In this document: positions 55 to 44,154 of the stretch, one piece after another
Numbering within the stretch: the first letter of the stretch is position 1
Layout: every line of letters starts with the position of its first letter
Assembly (NCBI GenBank): GCA_022794615.1
Contig: JAAWFD010000005.1
Location: 1-56,916, forward strand
Origin: Clostridia bacterium
Lineage (GTDB): Bacteria > Bacillota > Clostridia > TANB77 > CAG-508
Length of the DNA: 56,916 nt
Reading direction: 5' to 3'
The notes under the pieces: generated by a model
Databases searched by the model: none
The model's input: the letters and a program-made list of their open reading frames with translations, nothing else
What the model was told of the DNA's origin: nothing
Program-made: the position numbers and the translations under genes

Positions 55-1539
55 TTAGAAGTTTTTTTCAAAAAAGACTTGACTTTTGATAGTTGGTCTA
101 TTTAGCACCTTCGCTATTTTTACAAATTCATCTAACATAGCTTCATCCTCCTCTTCATAACCTTGGAGAAATTCACCAGAATTTGCTTCGAACAACAAAT
201 TTGCGGTCTGCGAAACTAGTGCTTCACGGTCAAGAATATTTTCTGTGGCAACAATACTTTCTTCTGTAACAGAGCTTTCTGCATTTGCCCATTTGCTTGA
301 TAAATTGCTTATATAACTGTTATCAAACAAACTACTTACATACTCTGGATTGGTGTCAAATCCAATTTGGCTCCAAACGGTACAAAAGTCCTGATAAATT
401 CCAGGTGCTATATCAAATGCCTCTAAGTTCTTTTCAAATCCTAATTGCTTAGAATCATTTAATAGTTCTGCCATAGTTGCATTATCATATGTTGCAAAAT
501 CGGGTATAGACTCACGAATGATGTCATATGTTTCTCCAACATCTACCCTATTGTTAATGTCATTGACAGCTGTAATGCAACCATCAATGATAGTAGTTAT
601 TACATCTGGGTTTTGCTCCGCAAATGTTTTATCTACCACTAATGCATCTATGATAAGATACTCGGCATCCTTGCTAGAGAACAGCAAGTGGCTTTCCTCA
701 GATCTTAATGCCGAAGTTAAATCCCATGTCGCTACAGCACTTACTTCTCCTCTTACAAAAGCATCAACAGCTTCTTGCGTGGAATTATATAGCTCGAAGT
801 TGTTTATTACAGTATTGACATCAATGTCACTTTGTATATTGAAAAGCCAAAGTAACATTGCTTCTGACACAGAATTTCGCGCCATGCCAATCTTAGCATT
901 TTGTAAAGAGGAAATCGAATTATAGTCGCCGTTAGCTACTATTCCATCGCCTCCTGTTGAGGTATCTGTGATATAAGGAATAATTACTTCTTTGTTTGCA
1001 TCCTGAAGTTCCTTACACACTAACGACATCTTATTGACAGTCATAAAGAAGAAGTCAATTTCACCATTTTTAAAGGCTTCAATGATGACATCATCATCAT
1101 CTTCAATCTTTATACTGACATCTAATCCATTTTCATAGTAATATGAATTTGGACTTGTTTCAAGACCACCATTAGCTACAATAGCTGCTGTATATCCTGC
1201 AAAACTATTACAATAGCCTCTAGCTTTGATAAACCTTTCTGTTACTGTTGGTGTTTCTACAGGTCCAGCAGGTGGTATCGTTGCTGTGTTACCCAGCTGT
1301 TTTTCACTTTCTTCCAGCAAATCGGTTATTGCGGAAGATGGTGTTGATGACTCTTCTTCGATGGGTATTCCTTGAACTTGTTGCTCATGTTGTTCATCAC
1401 TCTGTAAATTGCCTGTTCCCTCCACTTTCTGCTCTAAAGCAGGACCTATCTTCCAGCCTGCTACAAGCAATAGTGCTATTACTATAAGCTCAAGCACTAC
1501 TTTTAATGGTTTCTTTAGTTGCCGTTTTGGTTTTTTCAT
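55..1539 (-). CDS. Membrane-anchored NMT1/THI5-like (SsuA/TauA-type) ABC substrate-binding protein, probably with a truncated C-terminal OmpA-like domain
   Basis: N-terminal TM helix; motifs 'GLDVSIKIEDD', 'DTSTGGDGIVA', 'LLFSSKDAEYLIIDALVV' typical of this SBP family; C-terminus 'ANLLFEANSGEF...LDEFVKIAKVLN' resembles the start of an OmpA domain, then ends in AT-rich sequence; AAAGGAG RBS; visibly more GC-rich than flanks. Confidence 0.7.
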   Translation of the reverse strand: MKKPKRQLKKPLKVVLELIVIALLLVAGWKIGPALEQKVEGTGNLQSDEQHEQQVQGIPIEEESSTPSSAITDLLEESEKQLGNTATIPPAGPVETPTVTERFIKARGYCNSFAGYTAAIVANGGLETSPNSYYYENGLDVSIKIEDDDDVIIEAFKNGEIDFFFMTVNKMSLVCKELQDANKEVIIPYITDTSTGGDGIVANGDYNSISSLQNAKIGMARNSVSEAMLLWLFNIQSDIDVNTVINNFELYNSTQEAVDAFVRGEVSAVATWDLTSALRSEESHLLFSSKDAEYLIIDALVVDKTFAEQNPDVITTIIDGCITAVNDINNRVDVGETYDIIRESIPDFATYDNATMAELLNDSKQLGFEKNLEAFDIAPGIYQDFCTVWSQIGFDTNPEYVSSLFDNSYISNLSSKWANAESSVTEESIVATENILDREALVSQTANLLFEANSGEFLQGYEEEDEAMLDEFVKIAKVLNRPTIKSQVFFEKNF

Positions 1540-3139: not shown

Positions 3140-3254
3140 ATTTTCCTCCTTTAAAAGTATTTTTACTATTATGCGTTATATTTATTATAAATAAAATATG
3201 CAAAATTATTCTTAATTCCACGCTATTGTATATTTGTTTTTATTAAGTTTCTTA

Positions 3255-4238
3255 TTATTCCTCTTTTTTATCTCTAGTCATTAATATTTGTAATGCTTCT
3301 TCTGGTTTTATTTCTCTATTTAATACTTTATAAACTGTTTCAACTATAGGCATTTCTACACTATGAATTTTTCCTAATTTATATGCAACTTCTATATTGT
3401 CTACACTTTCTATCGTCATCCCAACTTGTTGTTTTGTTTCTTCTAATGTATATCCTTGTGCAATTAATCTTCCTGCTCTTCTATTTCTGCTATGCTCGCT
3501 TAAACATGTTACTATTAAATCTCCTAAACCACTTAATCCATAAAATGTCTCTCTTTCTCCTCCAAGCTCTACTCCTAGTCTGCTTATTTCTACTAATCCT
3601 CTTGTTATTAATGCTGCAAATGAATTGTCTCCTAGTCCTAAACCTGATGCAACTCCAGCACAGAATGCTATTATGTTTTTTAATGCGCCTCCAAGTTCTA
3701 CTCCTTTTACATCATTTGATGTATATATTCTCATTTTTTCACACATAAATGTGTCTTGTATTAATTTTTGTACTTCTTTATCTTTCGATGCTATAACTAA
3801 TACAGTAGTCATTAAAAATGCAACCTCTTCTGCATGACTTGGTCCTGATAATACTCCTATTTTTGTATTTGGCATTTCTTGTTGAAATATTTCATCTAAT
3901 GTTGATAATGTTTCGCTTTCAAATCCCTTTGAACATATTATAACTGGTTGATTTGTTACATATTGTTTGTAGTCTTTTAATGTACTTCTTGTAAATTTTG
4001 ATGGTGTAACATGTAATATAAAGTCTGTTCCTTCTATTGCTTCTTTATATGATGTTGTACATATTACTTTTTCTGGTATTAGAGCATCTGGTATGAATTT
4101 GCACTTTTTTTCATTGTTTATCATATCTGCTTCTTCTTGCATAAATGACCATATCCTTACTTCATTCCCTAAACTTGCTAAGTGTATTGCAAGTGCTACT
4201 CCCCAGCTTCCACTTCCTATTATTCCTATTTTTTTCAT
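3255..4238 (-). CDS. gpsA: NAD(P)H-dependent glycerol-3-phosphate dehydrogenase
   Basis: GSGSWG Rossmann motif, 'SKGFE', 'LSGPSHAEEV', 'GGALKNIIA', 'GLSGLGDLIVTC...SRNR'. Confidence 0.97.
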   Translation of the reverse strand: MKKIGIIGSGSWGVALAIHLASLGNEVRIWSFMQEEADMINNEKKCKFIPDALIPEKVICTTSYKEAIEGTDFILHVTPSKFTRSTLKDYKQYVTNQPVIICSKGFESETLSTLDEIFQQEMPNTKIGVLSGPSHAEEVAFLMTTVLVIASKDKEVQKLIQDTFMCEKMRIYTSNDVKGVELGGALKNIIAFCAGVASGLGLGDNSFAALITRGLVEISRLGVELGGERETFYGLSGLGDLIVTCLSEHSRNRRAGRLIAQGYTLEETKQQVGMTIESVDNIEVAYKLGKIHSVEMPIVETVYKVLNREIKPEEALQILMTRDKKEE

Positions 4239-40272: not shown

Positions 40273-41565
<1,293 letters not shown>

Positions 41566-41654
41566 TTAAAGGAAATGCTAAACATTTTCTTTTTTCCTTT
41601 TTTGGTATTTTATCCCTTTTTTTATTTCTTATACATTTAGCCTGCTATATAATA

Positions 41655-41738
41655 GAAAAAAGTGGTTGATATTAACCACTTATAAAGTCTTCTATAATGC
41701 AGGTACTAATATCAAAGATATTGCACTGCTGAGTTATA
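41655..41738 (-). ncRNA. Candidate ~85-nt structured small RNA downstream of the PemK-like gene
   Basis: Own promoter upstream; hairpin GCAG-UGC-AAUAUC-UUU-GAUAUU-A-GUA-C-CUGC; terminator AAGUGGUU/AACCACUU plus U-run; no ORF. Confidence 0.6.
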
Positions 41739-41743
41739 ACTTT

Positions 41744-41773
41744 ATTATAATATATAATATGTGATTTTGTCAA
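41744..41773 (-). promoter_or_regulatory. Sigma-A promoter just downstream of the PemK-like stop codon
   Basis: TTGACA (41773-41768), 18 bp, TATAAT (41749-41744). Confidence 0.65.
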
Positions 41774-41785
41774 TTTCTATTCAAA

Positions 41786-42487
41786 TTATTTTAGAAAAAG
41801 TTCTTTTATTTTTGCATCTATTAAATTTAATGTATTAGTTGATACTCTCAAATTAGCAAGAATGTCCGAAGAAGTTTTTGGATTATAAATTCTTTGTTTA
41901 CTAATTGTAGTAATTTGACTAATTAGTGCAATACTTCCTTTCTTCATCTTTGCAATTTCTTTTTCTATATTTTTAAACTCAGTATTAAATTTTTCCACTT
42001 TTTCAGTTGCCAAGTTCCATATGTTTTCATATTCATTCGCTAATTTTAGAGACATATTATCACATATTTTCTTTAAATTAATATATATTTCATTTCCTAT
42101 ATTAAGTGTAGAACTATTATATTTTTTATTTTCTTTTATAGATGTTAATGGAATTACAGTTAAGGTTCCTGATGATAATGCATTATTTTTATCTAGAACA
42201 ATACAATAATGTAAACCTCCTTCTTCATTTCCTACATTAAATCCTAAATTTGCCTTTATTATACTGCCCCTCTTATACTTTTTTAATAATTTTGGATTAA
42301 AATTTTCTTCATTTAAATTATATTTTGAAAAATCCTCAAACCAATAGGAAAGTAAATTGGCTTTTTTCAAGTTGTTATTTTCTATATGATAAGTTAATAA
42401 TAAATCAATTTGATTTACTGCTATCTGTTTATGAGCAATAGCATTTATATATTCAGTTCTATTTTCTAGAATTTGTTTTTCTTCCAA
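41786..42487 (-). CDS. PemK/MazF-fold protein, long form (233 aa), no protein antitoxin adjacent
   Basis: 'YKRGSII.ANLGFNVGNEEGGLHYCIVL', 'TVIPLTS', 'SQITTISKQRI'; N-terminal extension and internal helical insert; TTG start with AGGAG. Confidence 0.82.
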   Translation of the reverse strand: MEEKQILENRTEYINAIAHKQIAVNQIDLLLTYHIENNNLKKANLLSYWFEDFSKYNLNEENFNPKLLKKYKRGSIIKANLGFNVGNEEGGLHYCIVLDKNNALSSGTLTVIPLTSIKENKKYNSSTLNIGNEIYINLKKICDNMSLKLANEYENIWNLATEKVEKFNTEFKNIEKEIAKMKKGSIALISQITTISKQRIYNPKTSSDILANLRVSTNTLNLIDAKIKELFLK

Positions 42488-42522
42488 TATTATAATTCTC
42501 CTTAATATGTTTTAATTGTTAG

Positions 42523-44154
42523 TTATGATGCTATCTTATTTCTTAATTCTTTTGCATATTGAATTGTCGTATCATTTATTTCTCCTGATGAAATTCTTGC
42601 TATTTCTCTTATTACTTCATCTTCTTTTAATAATTCTATATTTGTATTTGTTCTTTCTCCTATTACTTTTTTGCTTATAAAATAATTGTAGTCTGCTTTA
42701 GCTGCTATGTTTGCTAAATGTGATATGCATAATACTTGATGTTTTTCTCCTATTGCACTTAATTTTTCTGCAACTGCTTTTCCTGCTTTTCCACTTATTC
42801 CTGTATCTATTTCGTCAAATACTAATACTGGCATATTATCTGTATCTGCTAGAACTTTCTTTATAGCTAACATTATTCTTGACATTTCTCCTCCTGATGC
42901 TATCTTTGTTAATGGCTTTTCATCTTCTCCTAAATTGGTTGTTATATAAAATTCTACTTGGTCTTTTCCGTTTTCGAAATATTCATCTTCATTATAGTCT
43001 ATATGCATATTTATTCTTGCATTTTTCATTTCTAAATCTTCTAATATTTTATTTATATTTGTATTTAACTTTTCTCCATTTTCTACTCTTAATTTATTCA
43101 TTTTTTCTGCTAATCTTATCATTTCTTTTTCTGTTTGCTTTATTTCTTCTTTTATCTTATGGTTATATTGTTCTATGTTTTCTAATTTTTGTATTTCTTC
43201 TGCTATTTCTTGTTTATATTTTATTATTTCTTCTATATCGTTTCCATATTTTCTTTTTAAATTGTAGATTATATTTAACCTTTCTTCTATTTCATTTCTT
43301 TCTTTTTCATCAAAATTTACATCTTCTTTATAATTTGATATATCTCTTGATAATTCTTGTAATTCATAATATATATTTTTTAAGTCATTATTAAAGTTTT
43401 GGTATTTTTCATCTATTGTTTCTATCTTTTCTAGTGCTCTTACTGCACTACTTATTATATCTATTGTTCCTTCTCCTATTGCTTTATCTACTGTATTTAA
43501 GCTTTCTATAATTTTCTCTGAATTTAATATCTTTTTTCTTCTTTCTTCTAATTTTATTTCTTCTCCTGTTTTTAAATTTGCTTCTTCTATCTCGTTTAAT
43601 TGGTATTGCAATAAATCTAGTCTTCTTTGTTTTTCTTTTTCATCTCCATAATTGTCCTTTAATTCTTTTTTTAATTTATTATATTTTATGTATTTTTCTT
43701 TGTATTCTTCTTTTATTTGTTTTATTTCTTCTCCTATAAAATTATCTAAATATTTTATATGTATTCTTGTGTCTAATATATTTTGGTTGTCGTTCTGCCC
43801 ATGTATTTCTATATAATTTTTCATGTATTCTTTTAATTCTGATACTGTTACTAATCTTCCATTTATTTTACATTGATTTCTTCCATTTGCATATATCTCT
43901 CTTGATACTATTATGTTCCCATCTATAGCATTTTCATCTTCTGGTACATATAGACATAATTCTACAAAAGAATTTTCTTCTCCTTTTCTTATCATTTCTT
44001 TTGAGAATCTCCCCCCTGATATTATGTCTAATGATCCTATTATTAAAGACTTTCCTGCTCCTGTTTCTCCTGTTAATACATTTAGTCCCTTATTTAAGTT
44101 TATTTCTATGTCATCTATTATTCCTATGTTTTTTATATGTAAGTTTGTTATCAT
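42523..44154 (-). CDS. recN: DNA repair protein RecN
   Basis: 'LTGETGAGKS', 'EIHGQND', coiled coil, 'IASGGEMSRIMLA', 'VFDEIDTGISG', 'CISHL'. Confidence 0.98.
   Translation of the reverse strand: MITNLHIKNIGIIDDIEINLNKGLNVLTGETGAGKSLIIGSLDIISGGRFSKEMIRKGEENSFVELCLYVPEDENAIDGNIIVSREIYANGRNQCKINGRLVTVSELKEYMKNYIEIHGQNDNQNILDTRIHIKYLDNFIGEEIKQIKEEYKEKYIKYNKLKKELKDNYGDEKEKQRRLDLLQYQLNEIEEANLKTGEEIKLEERRKKILNSEKIIESLNTVDKAIGEGTIDIISSAVRALEKIETIDEKYQNFNNDLKNIYYELQELSRDISNYKEDVNFDEKERNEIEERLNIIYNLKRKYGNDIEEIIKYKQEIAEEIQKLENIEQYNHKIKEEIKQTEKEMIRLAEKMNKLRVENGEKLNTNINKILEDLEMKNARINMHIDYNEDEYFENGKDQVEFYITTNLGEDEKPLTKIASGGEMSRIMLAIKKVLADTDNMPVLVFDEIDTGISGKAGKAVAEKLSAIGEKHQVLCISHLANIAAKADYNYFISKKVIGERTNTNIELLKEDEVIREIARISSGEINDTTIQYAKELRNKIAS

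Follow-up and report, generated by a model that had tools for sequence, protein, structure and literature searches.

How is a MazF-fold toxin restrained when no antitoxin gene lies beside it? MazF and PemK are textbook type II toxins and, to our knowledge, their antidote has always been described as a protein. The stretch of DNA studied here, hereafter the window, comprises 56,916 nucleotides (nt) of contig JAAWFD010000005.1 from a Clostridia bacterium (assembly GCA_022794615.1; Bacillota, Clostridia, TANB77, CAG-508) and carries between recN and eno a gene for an enlarged PemK/MazF-type protein of 233 amino acids (aa). The original prediction, made from the letters of the window, had proposed that a small RNA encoded directly downstream takes the place of the missing protein antitoxin.

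Comparative analysis supports the core of this proposal, namely a MazF/PemK toxin without a protein antitoxin and a dedicated, independently transcribed RNA gene behind it. The preferred reading, to which a probability of roughly 55% is assigned, is a toxin-antitoxin or abortive-infection module resembling type III systems, whose RNA would bind and block the MazF ribonuclease (RNase).

A small RNA gene behind the toxin gene

The two genes and the elements of the RNA gene are as follows.

41786-42487, minus strand: toxin open reading frame (ORF), 233 aa, TTG start codon, ribosome-binding site (RBS) AAGGAG at 42498-42503
41744-41773, minus strand: promoter of the RNA, TTGACA (41773-41768), 18-nt spacer, TATAAT (41749-41744), 12/12 match to the consensus
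41656-41737, minus strand: predicted small RNA of ~82 nt, its ends placed by the -10 box (5′) and by the U-run of the terminator (3′)
41699-41729, minus strand: hairpin P1, 13 bp, UUU loop, single-nt bulges A and C on the 3′ arm, from fold and covariation
41687-41693, minus strand: conserved motif AGAAGAC, single-stranded, separating P1 from the terminator; may be recognised by the toxin or serve as a pseudo-substrate
41655-41681, minus strand: intrinsic terminator, AAGUGGUU / AACCACUU, 6-nt loop, U-run, ending the small RNA and any read-through transcript of the toxin gene

The promoter begins 12 nt past the toxin stop codon and is the sole perfect 12/12 site in the region. The RNA consists, in this order, of a 5′ leader, P1 (GCAGUGCAAUAUC-UUU-GAUAUU-A-GUA-C-CUGC, 31 nt), the motif AGAAGAC and the terminator hairpin (AAGTGGTT-AATATC-AACCACTT, followed by a T-run), the single-stranded stretch after P1 being AUUAUAGAAGACUUUAU. 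The terminator is the only terminator-like site within 41400-42700 (1.3 kb), where shuffled sequences give 0.1, and for a 91-nt stretch the folding energy is -23.6 kcal/mol (z = -5.2), a value that none of 200 shuffles attains. Promoter, long bulged hairpin and terminator are all present as had been described from the sequence, the RNA being predicted at ~82 nt where ~85 nt had been given.

On the minus strand the order is recN, a gap of 35 nt (36 bp had been stated), toxin ORF, RNA promoter, small RNA, terminator, ~115 nt of intergenic DNA and eno. No terminator lies between the toxin gene and the RNA gene, so that the toxin mRNA is predicted to end at the terminator of the small RNA and to contain the RNA sequence once at its own 3′ end. 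The claim that no antitoxin ORF adjoins the toxin gene stands: no ORF of at least 30 aa was found there except two chance frames of 32-33 aa within the RNA region, which in sister loci are broken by indels (a 4-nt insertion in L045 and L046, a spacer shorter by 1 nt in L043). A hidden small ORF in the RNA region was considered and rejected, the 33-aa frame starting at the TTG of the -35 box, lacking an RBS and being frameshifted in the three sister loci just named.

Rfam, to which the original prediction had pointed for comparison, returned no family. In Rfam 15 the RNA region of the window has no match at E <= 10, and at the gathering score neither a match in the whole window nor a type III antitoxin family in 20 diverse homolog loci was found. 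The abiF family was verified to be in the library scanned, which presumably also included pemK, ToxI, CptI and TenpI.

Linkage of the toxin gene and the RNA gene across homologs

For the enlarged MazF protein 1835 homolog clusters were found, and 80 loci from species genomes as well as 44 from viral contigs were examined, of which 78 and 42, respectively, extend far enough downstream to be assessed (120 in total). A unit of consensus promoter, structured RNA of 75-110 nt and intrinsic terminator directly follows the toxin gene in 77 of the 78 genome loci and in all 42 viral loci (119/120). The structure predicted behind the window's toxin gene is hence kept among its homologs, and it is kept with covariation, as described below. 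The pairing reaches down to 30-45% protein identity, as in Streptococcus phage Javan166 and Staphylococcus aureus phage SA13, where the toxin gene lies between repressor and integrase and is followed by promoter, hairpin(s), an AAGAC or UAGAC motif and terminator. Carriers include S. aureus phietaviruses (phages 85, 92, phiMR25 and SA13) and Javan prophages of Streptococcus. Across 32 phage records from S. aureus the RNA stretch is at least 99% identical and bears no RNA annotation; the phage record B236 independently annotates a 'promoter' and a 'terminator' at this stretch.

A second long-MazF gene of the source genome (L020, contig C15, 55372-56058, minus strand, 49% identity) is accompanied by an RNA of class 7 (see below for the classes). 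Here the RNA gene is convergent with the toxin gene, its terminator ending ~20 nt from the stop codon of the latter. A single 1-Mb genome carries two modules whose RNAs differ in class, as would be expected for cognate pairs that do not cross-react.

A promoter that merely reads into eno does not account for these observations, the unit recurring behind the toxin gene in unrelated contexts. A leader or attenuator of eno was rejected as well: the unit ends in a terminator, follows the toxin gene also where the neighbourhood is an unrelated one, and is inverted in one clade.

Several loci hold further RNA elements. In two of them, L060 (2957-3043) and L071 (3943-4027), the first small RNA gene is followed in tandem by another member of its family, and in L060 the pair is mixed, class 2 preceding class 3. 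The Javan166 locus (L031) has, between the integrase gene and the RNA of the module, a member of the S. pyogenes small RNA family Spy779816 (RF02589, 76 bits; 3232-3318, minus strand), which is encoded on the opposite strand and is convergent with the partner RNA. On the viral contig of L133 an abiF RNA motif (RF03085; 3626-3662, plus strand) that only just reaches the gathering score (37.1 bits) lies ~400 nt downstream of the module, which hints at a small defence cluster. A FuFi-1 RNA (RF02986, 90 bits; 695-975, plus strand) is found ~2 kb upstream of the long-MazF module in L067.

The RNA family

About a dozen RNA classes are distinguished by sequence, and all follow one shared design: a leader of 6-13 nt, often with UAAC, a hairpin with one or two single-nt bulges on the 3′ arm, the single-stranded motif (A/U)AGAAGAC (variants AAGAU, AAUAC and UAGAC) and the terminator hairpin. 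The bulge layout of P1 recurs in classes 1-4, 7 and 8. Some classes carry the motif on both sides of the hairpin, and others possess two tandem hairpin-motif units (L146, L131 and SA13); the single-copy RNA of the original prediction thus holds for the window but does not extend to every member of the family. In the two-repeat variants L146 and L131 the motif AAGA[CT] is located at the repeat junctions, like the cleavage sites in type III arrays.

The covariation sought for the downstream RNA is found in two alignments. In the class-1 alignment (A3, 15 sequences) P1 is paired in 100% of the cells and 6 of its 13 pairs are changed on both sides, a covariation that shuffles never reach. A covariance model built from class 1 alone (R1) matches the window at 41651-41743 with 109 bits and finds classes 3, 4, 5, 7 and 8 at E values of 1e-8 to 1e-3, each match lying directly behind the toxin gene with the strand as expected. 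The cross-class alignment (A4, 57 sequences) displays double changes in 13/13 pairs of P1 (91% of cells paired) and covariation in 8/8 pairs of the terminator (99.8% of cells paired), pairing counts that are inflated by the fitting of A4 to the model structure. All 21 pairs of A4 show compensatory changes, and the covariation score is 0.72 as compared to 0.22 for shuffled alignments and at most 0.14 for slid partners.

The motif AAGA[CT] forms a conserved column block in A4 and is present in 13 of 16 class representatives versus 4.2 in dinucleotide shuffles (0/1000 as high). Taken together, the RNAs form one structured family, absent from Rfam and under purifying selection for the structure and for the single-stranded motif.

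A closing helix proposed for class 1 by RNAalifold (5′ AAAGUU / GACUUU) is invariant in class 1 and absent from the other classes, and was left out of the model. The terminator stems vary freely with covariation, yet the loop CAUUGC is kept across several classes, the window copy having AAUAUC; the terminator hairpin may have a role beyond termination.

The presumed toxin protein

The PF02452 PemK_toxin profile matches the window's protein with 43.3 bits (cut-off 23.1, E 4.7e-11; Pfam) in two stretches that are split by a helical insert, the first of them covering positions 1-59 of the 109 of the profile. The ORF between recN and eno is hence of the PemK/MazF type, as had been predicted. In PHROGs the family phrog_1412 is matched over its full length by residues 23-233 (E 3e-45). 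Publicly, homologs are annotated as 'type II toxin-antitoxin system PemK/MazF family toxin'; phrog_1412 and some phage records carry the label 'antitoxin mazE-like', although it is the MazF-fold protein that bears this label and no match supports it. No match to and no model for the toxin protein was found in PADLOC, and NCBIfam gave noise only. The ToxN, CptN and TenpN families have no Pfam match at E <= 10, PemK_toxin and one chance match being the only ones.

An AlphaFold model of the toxin, computed from an alignment of 29 sequences, has a predicted local distance difference test (pLDDT) score of 81.5. In the model two N-terminal helices (2-36 and 40-60) precede the MazF barrel strands (75-131), which are followed by a helical-hairpin insert (133-180), the final barrel strands (185-196) and a C-terminal helix; the N-terminal extension and the helical insert proposed from the sequence are thus both seen. 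The top 50 Foldseek matches in the Protein Data Bank (PDB) are all MazF or PemK chains, the best being MazF of S. aureus and Bacillus subtilis with template modelling (TM) scores, relative to the target, of 0.72-0.77 and E values of ~6e-6.

In profile searches against the PDB sequences the segment GGLHY aligns to GGVRP of the B. subtilis and B. cereus MazF proteins, which places LHY at the usual RP position as had been noted, while IPLTS aligns to AAITA and QITTISKQRI to EQIRTIDKQRL of the same two proteins. Consequently, the position of the catalytic arginine (Arg25 of B. subtilis MazF) is taken by the invariant His93, and the catalytic threonine (Thr48) is kept as Thr115. Across the family these two residues and the substrate-binding segment vary little or not at all, which implies selection for a presumed activity. 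On the model, the protein is a real MazF fold with conserved active-site geometry but altered chemistry, and a putative endoribonuclease. A search for class-specific residues in the conserved toxin core that track the RNA motif variants yielded nothing convincing.

Co-divergence, inversion and decay

When the RNA classes are mapped onto a maximum-likelihood tree of 103 toxins, 14 label changes are needed, with a minimum of 12 and 72.7 in shuffled assignments; the classes hence follow the toxin tree. In one clade (c7+c8, support 100/96), which is nested among the same-strand classes, the RNA gene is inverted and convergent with the toxin gene, and is still linked to it. The RNA gene was thus apparently flipped once and stayed linked. 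That it is inverted and nonetheless linked argues for an RNA which acts in trans as a molecule and against a cis element of the toxin transcript.

Five loci combine a toxin gene broken by frameshift or stop codon with an intact RNA gene (L047, L048, L038, L066 and L076), and the reverse is seen only in L049. Antitoxin-like remnants that outlive their toxin would fit toxin-antitoxin logic. The RNA model, run against 201 genomes of the family, returned seven matches: three adjoin intact toxin genes, two are decayed remnants without a toxin gene (L164 and L165) and two weaker ones are orphan RNAs of another class, L166 among them.

Two orphan RNAs are class-4-like and have no long-MazF gene nearby. 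One (L166, G081:C14, 1531-1614, plus strand) lies between a cI-like repressor with helix-turn-helix (HTH) and S24 domains and a tyrosine integrase, the usual slot of the toxin; the other (L167, G239:C24, 1395-1474, plus strand) follows the gene for a DUF3644 plus EC042_2821 nuclease-like protein. Both could be antitoxin-only remnants or partners of another protein. In two species from another family of the order (G030:C11, 39847-40519, and G034:C11, 40842-41514) the long-MazF gene is split between two frames at the identical point, residues 10-86 being in one frame and the rest in another, which is either a shared frameshift or a pseudogene.

Proposed mechanism and alternatives

In the mechanism proposed here, the first gene would provide an enlarged MazF-fold endoribonuclease as toxin and the second an RNA of ~82 nt transcribed from its own consensus sigma-70 promoter. 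The abundant small RNA would bind the toxin protein directly, its hairpin being held by the family-specific helical additions of the toxin and AGAAGAC filling the RNA-binding or active-site groove as a pseudo-substrate, a slowly cut substrate or a processing site. The RNase would thereby be kept inactive, as ToxN, CptN and TenpN are by the type III antitoxin RNAs. If synthesis or stability of the RNA falls, through phage infection, loss of the element or shut-off of transcription, toxin would be set free and would cleave cellular or phage RNA, leading to abortive infection or retention of the element. The prophage slot between repressor and integrase suggests either of these two functions.

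Several observations weigh against this preferred reading. The canonical catalytic arginine is replaced by histidine and toxicity of the family is presumed; the expression of the RNA is deduced from promoter and terminator. Physical linkage alone could also give the pattern of classes on the toxin tree, and the A4 pairing counts are to be discounted as stated above. One intact toxin gene (L049, 60% identity) is followed by a terminator only, without an RNA gene, and a class-1 RNA elsewhere in that genome was not found; conversely, orphan RNA genes exist (L164, L165 and L166). In the toxin ORFs AAGA[CT] is not depleted (z = -1.0), and nothing marks the motif as a cleavage site. Finally, the window copy itself may be in decay, with 3 aa deleted from the insert and the toxin promoter lost; its terminator loop departs from the class consensus, and the terminal branch of its toxin measures 0.13 as compared to 0.01-0.07 in the sisters.

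Linkage, covariation and co-divergence demonstrate a partnership and not its sign, and the RNA might be a dedicated partner without being an inhibitor, namely a cofactor, a specificity or scaffold subunit, a sensor or trigger, or a regulator of targets in host or phage, its own level being set by the RNase. The conserved single-stranded motif, the 5′ UAAC and the CAUUGC of the terminator loop suggest several contact surfaces, as in a ribonucleoprotein, and L049 demonstrates that an intact toxin gene without the RNA exists. A MazF-fold RNase would be hard to carry without an inhibitor, however, loci with a defective toxin gene and an undamaged RNA gene outnumber the opposite kind several-fold, and a promoter of consensus sequence implies more RNA than protein, which is the stoichiometry of an antitoxin. 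A non-inhibitory partner is therefore considered unlikely.

Base-pairing offers a different route to an RNA antitoxin, in which the RNA, as in type I systems, would pair with the toxin mRNA and block its translation or trigger its decay by RNase III. The inverted classes c7 and c8 provide the best case for it: the terminator of the convergent RNA gene ends 10-25 nt from the toxin stop codon and the toxin strand is without a good terminator, so that a toxin mRNA running on past its gene would contain the full complement of the RNA, an arrangement known from TxpA/RatA and BsrG/SR4. In the window and in most classes, however, RNA and toxin gene share one strand, which makes cis-antisense pairing impossible, and the inverted clade is a derived one. 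Complementarity between the RNA and the translation-initiation region of the cognate toxin gene is not in excess (predicted duplex energy -12.4 kcal/mol versus -12.5 kcal/mol for non-cognate pairs, ranks scattered); since cognate duplexes are no stronger than non-cognate ones, a base-pairing mechanism is unsupported for the same-strand classes. Moreover, the type I toxins known to us are small membrane peptides and not RNases of 233 aa. We regard this explanation as rather improbable.

The protein could also be self-restrained, its helices and insert acting as a fused antitoxin, or be inactivated by His93, in which case the downstream unit would be a conserved terminator and promoter region or a hitch-hiking small RNA. 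No role has been assigned to the family-specific additions 1-60 and 133-180, and the replaced arginine and the missing PADLOC model agree with this view. Yet a mere terminator needs neither a 12/12 promoter nor a covarying, bulged hairpin of 13 bp nor a conserved motif at identities down to 30%, and it would not stay linked after inversion, while the near invariance of His93, Thr115 and the substrate-binding segment points to selection for activity; this makes a self-restrained or inert protein very unlikely. An ordinary type II toxin with its protein antitoxin encoded elsewhere in the genome would agree with the public type II annotation and the 'mazE-like' phage labels and is nevertheless hardly credible, as the 860-bp unit moves without a second ORF into ~1-Mb genomes, prophages and satellites, where a trans-encoded partner could not accompany it, and as the 'mazE-like' label belongs to the MazF-fold protein itself.

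Comparison with known systems

Known type III systems are ToxIN/AbiQ, CptIN and TenpIN (Blower et al. 2012, PMC3401426; review PMC5086642). Their antitoxin is made of tandem direct RNA repeats encoded upstream of the toxin gene, with a terminator in between. By analogy, the module of the window would work most like these systems. Common to both are an endoribonuclease toxin of the wider Kid/MazF-like fold (in the window a predicted one) without a protein antitoxin, and a dedicated structured RNA from the same locus, probably made in excess in the window as well. Furthermore, some members of the long-MazF family have two hairpin-motif repeats with the motif at the junction, and the modules ride on phages and mobile elements, which renders a role in abortive infection plausible. 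In contrast to ToxN, CptN and TenpN, the toxin of the window is a true PF02452 domain with an N-terminal two-helix extension and an insert. Its RNA gene is located downstream with its own consensus promoter instead of upstream with a leaky terminator, and is a single unit; the relatives with two repeats also have it downstream, it can be inverted, and none of the type III antitoxin families of Rfam matches it.

With the type II systems MazEF and PemIK (Kis-Kid) the module shares the catalytic fold and the substrate-binding segments, the best matches being EndoA/MazF of B. subtilis (4MDX) and MazF of S. aureus (4MZP). It differs from them in lacking a MazE or PemI gene, in a protein of twice the size, in the exchange of the catalytic arginine for histidine and in the presence of a small RNA gene where no partner is expected. 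By sequence and predicted fold the module therefore belongs to the MazF/PemK superfamily, yet it would not be a type II system because it has no gene for a protein antitoxin.

AbiF with its abiF RNA motif (RF03085) is reportedly a phage-encoded Clostridioides difficile system under RNA-based control. Here as there, a prophage-borne toxin of the abortive-infection type is coupled to a small structured RNA in place of a protein antitoxin; the toxin family and the RNA are unrelated, however, and the abiF RNA stands upstream of its gene. B. subtilis prophages provide examples of type I systems with a 3′-overlapping antisense RNA, namely TxpA/RatA and BsrG/SR4. The second module of the source genome and the other members of the inverted classes c7 and c8 resemble them in that a convergent RNA ends beside the toxin stop codon, whereas the RNA of the window is co-directional with its toxin gene, displays no complementarity signal and accompanies a large predicted RNase instead of a membrane peptide.

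A full-text search of the literature found no description of a MazF or PemK toxin with an RNA antitoxin. In a broader reading, for and against which the scales stand about level, enlarged MazF-fold RNases that are automatically annotated as orphan 'type II toxins' or 'MazE-like antitoxins' would constitute a widespread, undescribed class of RNA-neutralised toxins in Bacillota and temperate phages. Their antitoxin would be a single, independently promoted and orientation-independent small RNA, whose bulged hairpin docks on the helical domains while AAGA(C/U) plugs the active site. If this is true, a large phage-borne branch of RNA-controlled MazF proteins blurs the boundary between types II and III, thousands of 'solo' MazF annotations are explained, and a likely abortive-infection or prophage-retention module is added to the S. 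aureus and streptococcal prophages, in their classic defence slot between repressor and integrase. The RNA catalogue gains a covarying family absent from Rfam. With a cassette of only 860 bp, cognate pairs in laboratory phages and clear mutational targets in the RNA (bulges, AGAAGAC and terminator loop), the proposal is readily testable.

The cassette and its insertion site

The surroundings of the two genes in the window comprise the following features.

42523-44154, minus strand: recN, upstream neighbour, TIGR00634 equivalog (E 3.4e-146), stop codon 42525-42523
41647-42505, minus strand: inserted two-gene cassette with RBS, toxin ORF and small RNA gene including its terminator, delimited by blastn homology and empty sites
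41539-41654, minus strand: leftover native recN-eno intergenic DNA with the RBS of eno, outside the cassette; it resembles the empty sites L171 and L172, and cassette homology stops before it
40273-41538, minus strand: eno, downstream neighbour, TIGR01060 equivalog (E 7.7e-197)

In blastn comparisons with 12 sister loci in unrelated contexts the homology extends from ~42505 to 41642-41658 (about 41647) at 73-84% identity, and the homology blocks consist of exactly the toxin ORF with its RBS and the RNA gene through its terminator. In at least 10 relatives of the genus recN and eno lie 65-110 nt apart, representing the empty site. From this restricted homology and the empty sites it follows that the window holds an inserted two-gene cassette of ~860 bp, some 10-20 nt past the recN stop codon. 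The distribution of long-MazF genes is patchy (19 of 41 related genomes), and the nearest homolog in other species (L002/L042, 82% identity) has a different neighbourhood with an identical promoter-hairpin-terminator plan. The module is found in ~1-Mb genomes, prophages and satellites; the cassette is a self-contained two-gene module that moves horizontally.

In the sister loci the toxin gene has its own promoter, TTGACA-17-TATAAT, ~50 nt upstream of the start (45-60 nt from promoter to start codon). The window copy is without such a promoter, and because of this loss its toxin gene probably depends on read-through from recN. The suggestion that the module rides on an SOS-regulated recN transcript concerns this copy alone and found no support, a Cheo/LexA box (GAAC-N4-GTTC with at most one mismatch) being absent near recN.

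The assembly contains a second enolase gene (G000, contig C37, 11111-11560) that is 73% identical to eno of the window and may be a paralog or may reflect a metagenome-assembled genome (MAG) in which two strains or species are mixed.

At the identical recN-eno site a sister species carries a different insertion (L174, G016:C17, 1950-2850, minus strand). Its protein of 161 aa (PF02452, E 2.8e-15) has the canonical Arg-Pro and an N-terminal extension and is without the helical insert; it is related to the long-MazF profile with an hhalign probability of 94.7%. The gene is followed by TTGACA-17-TATAAT, a hairpin RNA without an Rfam match at E <= 1, and a terminator with AAAAGAC in its loop. This insertion suggests that the recN-eno site is an insertion hotspot and that modules of MazF plus small RNA form a wider set, and it is a hint that 'solo' MazF toxins commonly have RNA antitoxins.

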